A stretch of 64,000 nucleotides of DNA from Escherichia phage JM10, in sequence record PP400777. One strand, written 5' to 3'. Positions 28,628 through 32,050 of the stretch are shown here, piece by piece; the stretch's first letter is position 1, and each line of letters begins with the position of its first letter. The position numbers and the translations under genes are program-made. The notes below the pieces were generated by a model. That model did no database searches, was not told the origin of the DNA, and saw nothing but the letters and a program-made list of their open reading frames with translations.

Positions 28628-29092
28628 TTATTTAATTTGTTTAGCAGACCAGATACGGTCTTTAATAAGTTTTTGGATATCTTCAACATACTCAAGGCTA
28701 TGAGCGTGAGGATTATCTTTGAAGCTATGTGCTCGTGCCAGTTTCTGGCCTTCTGTTTTGATTACTAAAAGCTCTTTAAGAATTGCTTCATACTTAGAAA
28801 TAATTCCTTTGGCGATATTTTTTTCTTGAGCTGCTTTAGGGTCTGCTTTTGGCGCAGGTGCTTTACCTGTAGCTTTCTGGAACAATTCACCTGATGCAGC
28901 TAGGCTTTTAAAAACTCGGCTAACAGTATTAGCATTAGTAAAACCTTCGGCTTTAAAATCTCTAATAAAACGGAAACGTTCTTCATCAGAGGCGTCTTTG
29001 TAAGAATATTTACCTGCTTGAATTGCTGCAATCGCAGCGGCTTTTACATCTGAACTAGATTGTTCAGTCAAAAATTCAGCGTATGATTTCAT
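28628..29092 (-). CDS. CTS-tagged candidate internal protein
   Basis: MKSYAEFLTE resembles the T4 capsid-targeting sequence; 154 aa. Confidence 0.5.
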   Translation of the reverse strand: MKSYAEFLTEQSSSDVKAAAIAAIQAGKYSYKDASDEERFRFIRDFKAEGFTNANTVSRVFKSLAASGELFQKATGKAPAPKADPKAAQEKNIAKGIISKYEAILKELLVIKTEGQKLARAHSFKDNPHAHSLEYVEDIQKLIKDRIWSAKQIK

Positions 29093-29137
29093 GTTGCTTT
29101 TCCTAAGTTAATTAACTTATCTATTTATTATTATGCC

Positions 29138-29164
29138 AAAAAGCCCCAACCTTTCGGAAGGGGC
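29138..29164 (-). terminator. rho-independent terminator hairpin (repeat copy C) ending the tRNA unit
   Basis: AGCCCCTTCCGAAAGGTTGGGGCT + TTTTT on minus strand. Confidence 0.55.
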
Positions 29165-29207
29165 TATATACCTTGTCGGGGTTCCACCTGCTAAGGCAAG
29201 TGTTTGT

Positions 29208-29299
29208 ACGAAACGCCGGGATTCGAACCCGGTTATTAAGCAGTTGACGCTACTCAATATTTTTAAAAGGCCATATCTCGACCATATCCGAACGTTCCG
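29208..29299 (-). ncRNA. tRNA-like RNA (92 nt) with canonical T-arm and acceptor stem but non-canonical core
   Basis: acceptor CGGAACG/CGTTTCG (one G-U); T-arm CCGGG-TTCGAAT-CCCGG; D and anticodon arms not resolvable by eye. Confidence 0.35.
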
Positions 29300-29472
29300 T
29301 CAAAAACGCTACTCGGCTTACGGCAAAGATATTTCCTCGAATCGATAATTCGGTGCGCCGTTTCTGCTGTGATGTAAGGGGATATTAACAAATCATAAAG
29401 ATTTATTAAGACCAGTCCTTACTCAGGGAACATCAGTCCGACGACTTACCGGTAGCGACCCGGCTTCTTATT

Positions 29473-29549
29473 TGGTCGAGGCAGAAGGATTCTAACCTTC
29501 AACCTACGGATTAGAAATCCGTTGCTCTATACAATTGAGCTATGCCTCG
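29473..29549 (-). tRNA. tRNA-Arg (anticodon UCU), CCA encoded
   Basis: hand-folded cloverleaf: acceptor CGAGGCA/TGCCTCG, D-stem GCTC/GAGC, anticodon stem ACGGA/TCCGT, loop TTTCTAA, T-arm GAAGG-TTAGAAT-CCTTC. Confidence 0.75.
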
Positions 29550-29555
29550 AATATA

Positions 29556-29629
29556 TGACCCAGACCAGATTCGAACTGGTAACCTTTCCCTTATGAGGGG
29601 ACTGCTGCTAACCATTGAGCTACAGGGCC
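29556..29629 (-). tRNA. tRNA with CAU anticodon (Met or Ile2-type)
   Basis: hand-folded: acceptor GGCCCTG/CTGGGTC (one mismatch), anticodon loop CTCATAA, T-arm ACCAG-TTCGAAT-CTGGT; 6 nt from tRNA-Arg. Confidence 0.65.
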
Positions 29630-29750
29630 TAAATAACTTTCTATTATGAAAGGCACTTTAGAGTACCTTTGGTAATAGAGGGTATGAATTAATAATAACA
29701 CATAATTCTTAAAGCAAATCAATCATTTTAACAGTTGGCAAAACGATTTC

Positions 29751-30035
29751 TCACCATATTTTGTATGTGTTCTGAATGCAATCAAGTCCTAAAGGATTCT
29801 TGAAAATATCATATTCAAGAGGGCCTTTTTCTGTTTCAATAAAGAAATCAAAGTTCACTGTATTAAATTTACGGTCTTCCCATAGTAATTTGACCTGTGA
29901 AGACGAACGGTCGATATAAACCTTTTCAACCTCAAAGTTAGTCAGAATACCGTAGTCATTAACTAGTGCTTTAGCTGCACGTTGATCGCTTTCGTATCCA
30001 TTCTCAACGGATTTTACCTTAGCGTAAAGAATCAT
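29751..30035 (-). CDS. hypothetical protein
   Basis: 94-aa ORF. Confidence 0.4.
   Translation of the reverse strand: MILYAKVKSVENGYESDQRAAKALVNDYGILTNFEVEKVYIDRSSSQVKLLWEDRKFNTVNFDFFIETEKGPLEYDIFKNPLGLDCIQNTYKIW

Positions 30036-31364: not shown

Positions 31365-32050
<686 letters not shown>

Follow-up and report, generated by a model that had tools for sequence, protein, structure and literature searches.

Homologs of the T4 species 1 and species 2 RNAs in the tRNA operon of Escherichia phage JM10, with a predicted cloverleaf-like fold for species 1 RNA

The tRNA cluster of Escherichia phage JM10 (sequence record PP400777) is reduced relative to that of phage T4, and the DNA adjoining it raises the question of what, if anything, it encodes. 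A preliminary description made from the sequence alone had drawn a 92-nt tRNA-like RNA there (29208-29299), with a perfect T-arm and a 7-bp acceptor helix, which was thought to be either a degenerate tRNA or a stable small RNA; the neighboring 29300-29472 was described as noncoding DNA with direct repeats. The window analyzed here is the whole stretch of 64,000 nucleotides, and all coordinates refer to it. The "tRNA-like RNA" is almost certainly the JM10 copy of the T4 small stable RNA species 1 (rnaC), as judged by its sequence. Both rnaC and its neighbor rnaD are already known and annotated in T4 and are thus not a discovery; what the analysis adds is their right boundaries in JM10, the recognition of rnaD, and a covariation-supported fold of rnaC with a testable loop-loop contact. 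The explanation that joins the identity of rnaC, its operon, its fold and a tRNA-like mimic is, taken whole, highly probable.

The tRNA operon

In this RB69-like phage the locus makes up the distal portion of a tRNA operon of T4 type, with every feature on the minus strand. Megablast matches to the region are RB69-like phages of the genus Mosigvirus (93-98% identity). The order of the operon is MotA-type middle promoter, tRNA-Ile(CAU), tRNA-Arg(UCU), rnaD, rnaC, terminator:

29692-29716, minus strand: putative MotA-type middle promoter, a TGCTTTA box, a 12-nt spacer and TATTAT (pattern match)
29556-29629, minus strand: tRNA with a CAU anticodon, homolog of T4 tRNA-Ile, lysidine type (ARAGORN; Rfam, 54.0 bits)
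29473-29549, minus strand: tRNA-Arg(UCU) with encoded CCA (ARAGORN; Rfam, 72.6 bits; alignment)
29352-29471, minus strand: homolog of rnaD (T4 species 2 RNA), 120 nt (alignment to the T4 misc_RNA rnaD)
29346-29351, minus strand: 6-nt spacer GAAUUA between rnaD and rnaC (transfer of the T4 annotation)
29207-29345, minus strand: homolog of rnaC (T4 species 1 RNA), 139 nt (alignment to T4, minimum free energy folding, covariation)
29181-29202, minus strand: 3' trailer hairpin CACUUGC-CUUA-GCAGGUG (folding; conserved in T4)
29138-29165, minus strand: terminator-like GC-rich hairpin AGCCCC..GGGGCU, then UUUUU (folding; conserved in T4)

ARAGORN and the Rfam tRNA family RF00005 agree that the 64-kb window contains exactly two tRNAs; both are minus-strand genes, with RF00005 scores of 72.6 and 54.0 bits. 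Neither program gives a further canonical tRNA anywhere in the window. The preliminary description had seen the same two by eye, and its account of a tRNA-Arg(UCU) with encoded CCA lying 6 nt from a CAU tRNA is borne out by ARAGORN, as is its count of eight tRNAs in T4 by the T4 record. Beyond these two genes, an Rfam search of 28900-29900 at E <= 10 returned noise only, and no Rfam family covers rnaC or rnaD. The CAU tRNA, which does not encode its CCA, shares 73 of 74 bases with the T4 gene whose annotation is isoleucyl-tRNA; the CAU tRNAs of T4-like phages are lysidine-type tRNA-Ile (PMC1524935). The tRNA-Arg(UCU) and T4 tRNA-Arg come from different sequence lineages and cannot be aligned; the T-loop of the JM10 tRNA is unusual (UUAGAAU), and its D-loop lacks GG. 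The tRNA set is likewise reduced to two in other Mosigvirus records, where only a tRNA-Arg and a tRNA-Met are annotated at this locus, and a two-tRNA set has been published for RB69 (PMC1524935).

The sequence at 29692-29716 probably functions as a promoter. Its MotA pattern has 8 matches in the 64-kb window against 1.8 expected, and 29681-29728 is 87.5% identical to the T4 region just 5' of the T4 tRNA cluster. In T4, a middle promoter lies directly upstream of the cluster, which yields a single ∼1.75-kb precursor transcript that ends after the species I gene (PMC2330249). At the other end of the JM10 operon, a simple terminator scan found nothing, because the stem contains two U.U mismatches; the hairpin is evident upon folding.

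Identity of rnaC and rnaD

The species 1 and species 2 RNAs of T4 have been known since the early 1970s, and Paddock and Abelson reportedly sequenced the species I RNA in that decade. The T4 reference record has two misc_RNA genes directly 3' of tRNA-Arg, rnaD ("species 2 RNA," annotated as 119 nt) and then rnaC ("species 1 RNA," annotated as 139 nt). The part of the window 3' of tRNA-Arg aligns almost base for base with this T4 stretch, and the boundaries of rnaD, spacer and rnaC listed above are those of the T4 annotation transferred through the alignment. JM10 rnaC is identical to that of T4 at 137 of 139 bases (98.6%) and collinear with it from the first to the last annotated base; the T4 northern probe for species 1 starts at the same TCGATTCG as JM10 rnaC. 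The neighboring protein genes are only 71-82% identical to their T4 counterparts, a difference that suggests selection on rnaC. The flanking genes are syntenic with T4 57B, ipI and trna.x (by family, the flanking ORFs match T4 57B, internal head protein and trna.x ORFs), and other T-even records place rnaC and rnaD annotations at the same site.

Species 1 RNA has been detected by northern blot in T4 (PMC9697503). Given the 98.6% identity and the conserved promoter and terminator, JM10 rnaC is most likely also a stable RNA of ∼140 nt, and its expression, RNA ends and processing are expected, by analogy, to be those of the T4 RNA. Thus, of the two possibilities offered originally, the stable small RNA was the right one. 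The 92-nt unit is only its 3' two-thirds; the RNA runs from 29345 to 29207, and the 5' end had been misplaced by 46 nt. Similarly, 29300-29472 is not a spacer, since it consists of rnaD and the 5' third of rnaC. Of the two repeats reported with it, one is real (see below); the other, GGACTG, is present at chance frequency (12 copies against 15 expected). The adjacent rnaD had gone unrecognized.

In GenBank, rnaC and rnaD lack annotation in many records of T4-like phages or are hidden under spurious "hypothetical protein" genes, and the present alignments could seed Rfam families for both.

Distribution of homologs

A set of 32 distinct rnaC sequences was assembled by distant BLAST and pattern scanning, with members from the genera Tequatrovirus, Mosigvirus, Karamvirus, Winklervirus, Gelderlandvirus, Kanagawavirus, Moonvirus and Marfavirus and from a genus-unassigned Citrobacter phage. 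In these nine phage lineages the length of rnaC is held at 141-145 nt when the CAA tail (CAG in one sequence) is counted. The RNA is flanked by tRNA-Trp and tRNA-Gly in Karamvirus and Gelderlandvirus and by tRNA-Phe and tRNA-Trp in a Winklervirus, in each case with tRNA-like spacers of 5-6 nt. Other genera have rnaC without rnaD, and Dhakavirus and Gaprivervirus have rnaD without rnaC (in Gaprivervirus it follows a protein gene, away from tRNAs); since each occurs without the other, the two are independent modules. A loose three-block pattern gave 4 real loci (by nhmmer) among the matches listed for viral contigs, nearly all the rest being chance, and a 21-base pattern gave 58 loci in metagenomes, only 3 of them real homologs. 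None of the 92 loci from the pattern scan of bacterial and archaeal genomes is an rnaC homolog by nhmmer; hence there is no sign of rnaC in such genomes within that pattern's limits.

Predicted secondary structure of rnaC

Folding and covariation together indicate that rnaC probably adopts a cloverleaf-like four-way junction. The minimum free energy and centroid structures are the same (-50.2 kcal/mol, z = -4.55), with the following predicted elements:

29338-29344, minus strand: P1 5' strand CGAUUCG (nt 2-8), the true acceptor-like 5' strand, which pairs with nt 131-137 (covariation)
29268-29337, minus strand: P2, a long rod-like arm (nt 9-78) with the apical 8-nt loop UUUGACGG (folding, covariation)
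29298-29303, minus strand: loop 1 hexamer UUGACG (nt 43-48), proposed kissing partner (complementarity)
29234-29259, minus strand: P3 hairpin (nt 87-112), a 10-bp stem and the 6-nt loop CGUCAA at 29244-29249 (covariation)
29216-29232, minus strand: T-arm CCGGG-UUCGAAU-CCCGG (nt 114-130; 100% paired)
29209-29215, minus strand: P1 3' strand CGUUUCG (nt 131-137; folding, anchor-based counting)

An 8-nt A-rich junction separates P2 from P3, and a single nucleotide after P3 is followed by the T-arm, which abuts P1. The perfect T-arm of the preliminary description is present at 29216-29232; it is an arm with a T-loop motif stacked on the 7-bp helix of the RNA's own termini (P1). After the P1 3' strand come U138, A139 and then genomic CAA; this tail is UACAA in 25 of the 32 sequences, UCCAA in six and UACAG in one.

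Covariation was assessed in two sets, a MAFFT alignment of 20 sequences and the 32 sequences by anchor-based counting, which made a covariance model unnecessary. In the 20-sequence set the model has 88.5% of its cells paired, a share that drops to 35-48% upon sliding the partners; changes on both sides are seen at 24 pairs, and none of 500 shuffles reached the observed covariation score. Among the 32, pairs with changes on both sides number nine of ten in P3, four of four in the apical P2 stem (P2e), one of five in the T-arm and one of seven in P1. Divergent clades have a second type of P2 arm, in which most of the P2 sequence is replaced and the rod design kept, with 8 of 21 pairs compensatory. 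The middle pair of the T-arm is G-C, U-A or A-U, and the T-loop is canonical in 29 of the 32. In P1, an A-U of T4 and Mosigvirus is G-C in other clades; with one covarying pair and two invariant U.U pairs, the case for this helix is weaker than that for P2e or P3.

The loop-loop contact and alternative pairings

The hexamers of the P2 loop (UUGACG) and the P3 loop (CGUCAA) are exact complements in 32 of 32 sequences, and in six Marfavirus-type sequences the two loops have changed jointly, to UUGGCG and CGCCAA. The stems that flank them both covary strongly, so both hairpins form, and an internal kissing contact between the two loops is therefore the simplest reading. We consider this contact reasonably likely and grade it no higher because the joint change represents one evolutionary event, confined to a set of sequences that resemble each other closely. 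The contact would also explain the second repeat reported for this DNA. GAGTAGCGT occurs in two copies on the minus strand, at 29247-29255 and 29306-29314 (0.25 expected; 4 of 100 shuffles reach two), and these would be the 5' strands of the two kissing hairpins. Complementarity and joint change fit pairing between molecules just as well as pairing within one, and the loops might thus serve in rnaC dimerization or each bind an external RNA target. However, a single molecule carries both loops, the distance between them does not vary, no external target came to light, and the total length stays at 141-145 nt in spite of the replacement of P2, which fits an internal geometric constraint; action between molecules is quite unlikely.

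The acceptor helix drawn originally (ACGGAAC/GUUUCGU) can indeed be formed on paper, but its 5' strand is the wrong one, being made of loop and 3'-strand bases of a conserved hairpin. More fully, ACGGAACG (nt 46-53) can pair with CGUUUCGU, giving a perfect 8-bp helix in T4, in Mosigvirus and in two Karamvirus-type sequences (L021 and L141), and the pairs of this helix could form in 85.9% of cases over the 32 sequences. Since both 5' strands compete for one 3' strand, rnaC could be imagined as a two-state RNA that alternates between the P1 fold and this pairing, which draws three of its bases from the kissing loop and others from the 3' side of the apical P2 stem and so disrupts both the apical hairpin and the kissing contact. 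Against such a switch, none of the eight pairs is compensatory (where the 3' strand changes from U to C its partner changes from G to A, turning G.U into A.C with no improvement), and three of the eight use invariant kissing-loop bases and are hence uninformative. Moreover, there are two or three mismatches in Gelderlandvirus, Marfavirus and some Karamvirus sequences, and forcing the helix costs 8-15 kcal/mol before the kissing contact is counted. A two-state rnaC thus appears very doubtful. The originally drawn helix is possibly a minor conformer and not the native fold.

Features of rnaD

The predicted fold of rnaD begins with a 5' hairpin, GCCGG[GUCGCUA]CCGGU, after which comes a domain with the closing stem GUCGUCG/CGGCG(C)AC (minimum free energy -36.9 kcal/mol, z = -2.9). 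In a consensus of 16 homologs, the 5' 50 nt and the 3' 22 nt are nearly invariant, and the middle is lineage-variable, with at least three unrelated versions. T4 rnaD (T4s002) has the same predicted architecture and, like that of JM10, begins two nucleotides beyond the tRNA-Arg CCA; the two differ in the sequence of the middle hairpin and at the 3' end, which is ACCA in T4 and ACCG in JM10. Most Mosigvirus and T2-type phages have an ORF of 114 amino acids (phrog_3355) between tRNA-Arg and rnaD, which is absent from JM10 and T4. A pairing of the rnaD loop GUCGCUA with the UAGCG repeats of rnaC was considered and dropped, because these repeats fall within covarying stems and because the occurrence of either RNA in a genus is independent of the other. 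When a T4-like phage was evolved on a semi-permissive host, all lines acquired a convergent SNP in rnaD (PMC12685909; 2025), an observation that hints at a host-specific role.

Possible maturation and function

The roles of the species 1 and 2 RNAs have been given as unknown (PMC3014915; PMC9697503), and our literature searches for rnaC and rnaD function returned only statements to that effect. By the model favored here, a MotA-dependent middle promoter would give one transcript that carries the two tRNAs, rnaD and rnaC and ends at the intrinsic terminator. In rnaC, the acceptor-like helix P1, formed by the real 5' and 3' ends, would stack on the T-arm, with P2 (∼70 nt) at the position of a D-arm and P3 at that of an anticodon arm; kissing of the P2 and P3 loops would then make a compact particle without an exposed anticodon, and this compactness could account for the stability of the RNA. 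An acceptor/T-arm minihelix is the minimal shape recognized by RNase P and other tRNA enzymes. Because rnaC has such a minihelix, is embedded in tRNA arrays and has no accessible anticodon-like loop, we propose both tRNA-like maturation and a role as a mimic. Host tRNA maturation would excise rnaC like a tRNA, RNase P making the 5' end and exonuclease trimming the 3' end, and we think it fairly likely that rnaC matures in this way. The species 1 RNA of T4 and its precursor are classic substrates of RNase III and other processing nucleases; cleavage by RNase III would fit the long P2 rod.

What the mature RNA might do is a more speculative matter. As an effector, rnaC could mimic a tRNA in shape, binding and titrating a tRNA-binding protein of host or phage, and such a decoy or sponge role is put forward as a tentative and rather doubtful suggestion. 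A narrower form of it, in which the protein is a host tRNA-binding factor (a tRNA-targeting defense nuclease, or a processing or repair enzyme), host range is influenced, the anticodon-arm equivalent is clamped by the kissing contact and could thus be neither decoded nor cut like an anticodon loop, and rnaD acts independently and in a similarly host-specific manner, is in our view unlikely. Strict tRNA mimicry is weakened by the three noncanonical T-loops among the 32 sequences. The genomic 3' tail is CAA and not CCA, with ACAA following the helix. Were the narrower form true, two long-known RNAs would finally gain a function. The comparative model supplies the mutants to make: P1 with its two invariant U.U pairs, the rod-like arm and the complementary loops.

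Other accounts of the locus need to be set beside the tRNA-like mimic. If rnaC were a functionless tRNA pseudogene left by a shrinking cluster, the canonical T-arm with its abutting helix, a cluster now down to two tRNAs, and a weak tRNA-Sec match on rnaC (16.6 bits against a gathering score of 47, E = 3.3) would all be understandable. But a match of 137 in 139 positions to T4 next to genes of 71-82% identity, a length of 141-145 nt in nine lineages and compensatory changes in arms that are foreign to tRNAs all speak against decay; rnaC is present also in T4, which has all eight tRNAs, and is a demonstrated stable RNA there, and it has no RF00005 or ARAGORN match. The degenerate tRNA of the preliminary description is thus hardly credible. 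Small protein-coding genes, as the "hypothetical protein" annotations would have it, are less credible still: ORFs of 42-71 codons do overlap the region and CDS features are drawn over it in several records, yet no frame stays open across the homologs, which have junction indels of 1-3 nt, substitutions in the stems are compensatory, and the RNA itself has been detected in T4.

A more serious competitor holds that the locus is purely a cis-acting processing or stability module and that the accumulation of rnaC and rnaD is its by-product. The RNAs are cotranscribed with tRNAs and flanked by tRNAs or the terminator, and the place of species 1 RNA and its precursor among the classic nuclease substrates, mentioned above, also speaks for it. 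Its position is not constant, however, in that rnaC closes the operon at its 3' end in T4 and Mosigvirus and is found in mid-array in Karamvirus, Gelderlandvirus and Winklervirus, and rnaD of Gaprivervirus follows a protein gene away from tRNAs. The independent occurrence of the two RNAs, near-invariant loops and junctions over 139 nt, which exceed the needs of a cleavage signal, and the rnaD SNP under host-specific selection also count against it, and on balance a purely cis-acting role is improbable.

Comparison with known RNAs

YrlA (RF02553), viral tRNA-like structures and mascRNA are, like rnaC, noncoding RNAs with a partial tRNA shape that engage tRNA enzymes for maturation or for protein binding. 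In YrlA, though, the termini form a Ro-binding stem and the tRNA-like part is internal, and rnaC has no membership in this class by sequence or architecture; the only RF02553 match lies over the true tRNAs at 29524-29584, with 17.8 bits against a gathering score of 69. The tRNA-like domain of tmRNA resembles rnaC in having an acceptor/T-arm minihelix made of the termini and a long helix that leads on from the acceptor 5' strand. rnaC, in contrast, is much shorter and lacks a tag reading frame, a series of pseudoknots and the G3.U70 pair, and it was rejected as a tmRNA, ARAGORN reporting none and Rfam giving no tmRNA match. A tRNA-Sec-like identity was also rejected on the features tested (the tRNA-Sec match is the weak one given above).

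A canonical tRNA (RF00005) shares with rnaC the four-way junction, the UUCGAAU T-loop, a terminal helix stacked on the T-arm without a linker, and an embedding in tRNA arrays with tRNA-like spacers. Unlike a tRNA, rnaC is 139 nt long, has a 70-nt rod in place of the D-arm, a 10-bp "anticodon" stem whose 6-nt loop would pair with another loop, two U.U pairs in the acceptor helix, an 8-nt P2/P3 junction and CAA instead of CCA, and it received no ARAGORN call and no RF00005 match even at E <= 10. T4 rnaC (T4s001) has the same position as the JM10 RNA, after rnaD and before the terminator, with a spacer that is likewise 6 nt long and the same predicted fold. Of the two substitutions in JM10, one (C for U) falls at a mismatch position in P2 and the other (G for A) gives U.G instead of U-A in P3; the one RNA belongs to a Mosigvirus with two tRNAs and the other to T4 with eight.

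Conserved elements of the species 1 RNA homologue

The terminal, acceptor-like helix of rnaC (P1; nt 2-8 with 131-137), the homologue of T4 species 1 RNA, contains two neighboring U.U mismatches (nt 5-6 with 133-134) that are invariant in all 32 homologues, as is the AGGA...GCCU junction that flanks them, whereas the other rnaC helices vary freely. This difference in constraint suggests that a protein may recognize the U.U pairs and the junction in a sequence-specific manner, or else that they may take part in a tertiary contact. In Winklervirus phage LC53 and a few related contigs, the loop of the T-arm adjoining P1 is UGCAUCC or UGCAUGC rather than the canonical UUCGAAU.

L003 1200-1362 (homologous locus of a related phage): rnaC with variant T-loop; also in loci L007, L016, L017 and L191

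Since the remainder of rnaC is conserved in these phages, the T-loop motif is apparently dispensable for the role of rnaC, whatever that is.

Many GenBank records have a "hypothetical protein" CDS drawn over rnaC or over rnaD (the species 2 RNA homologue), and only a few (T4, T4T, RB5, RB9, and Aplg8) label either RNA.

Loci of related phages listed for a CDS over rnaC or rnaD:
L002 2188-2316
L020 1016-1153
L206 242-415
L207 265-375
L208 404-532

A conserved reading frame across the homologues was looked for and none was found; these CDSs look like annotation artefacts.

Genomic surroundings of the RNA genes

In most of the Mosigvirus relatives and T2-type phages, tRNA-Arg and rnaD are separated by an ORF of 114-116 amino acids (phrog_3355) with its own Shine-Dalgarno sequence, whose stop codon lies within the rnaD 5' tail. 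It is absent from the window, T4, and phage JM17.

L002 1749-2111: phrog_3355 ORF; the corresponding site in the window is the 29472/29473 junction

Because the two endpoints of this segment have CCAA/CCAAAA microhomology in common, its presence or absence is evidently a clean insertion or deletion polymorphism. In Gaprivervirus phages DK-13 and UPEC01, an rnaD homologue directly follows a protein gene, and the record annotation gives no tRNA in the 800-bp flanks; in UPEC01 a helix adjoining the closing stem is lengthened by changes on both strands (GCCUG/CAGGC).

rnaD homologues of Gaprivervirus phages (DK-13, UPEC01):
L202 801-922
L204 801-914

Upstream, about 1.7 kb from the tRNA/rnaC/rnaD block in both the window phage and T4, lies gene 57B or, in the window, an ORF that matches it; the T4 record, too, names 57B an RNA ligase.

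31365-31820 (-): ORF matching T4 57B; phrog_755, annotated "RNA ligase"

The tRNA-Arg gene

29473-29549 (-): tRNA-Arg(UCU)

The T-loop of this tRNA is UUAGAAU, so that position 56 is A and not C, and its D-loop, AAUUGUAUA, lacks the usual GG. The tertiary G19-C56 pair would thus become U19-A56. By contrast, the related tRNA-Arg genes of phages JS10 and BW-1 retain the standard GG and UUCGAUC.
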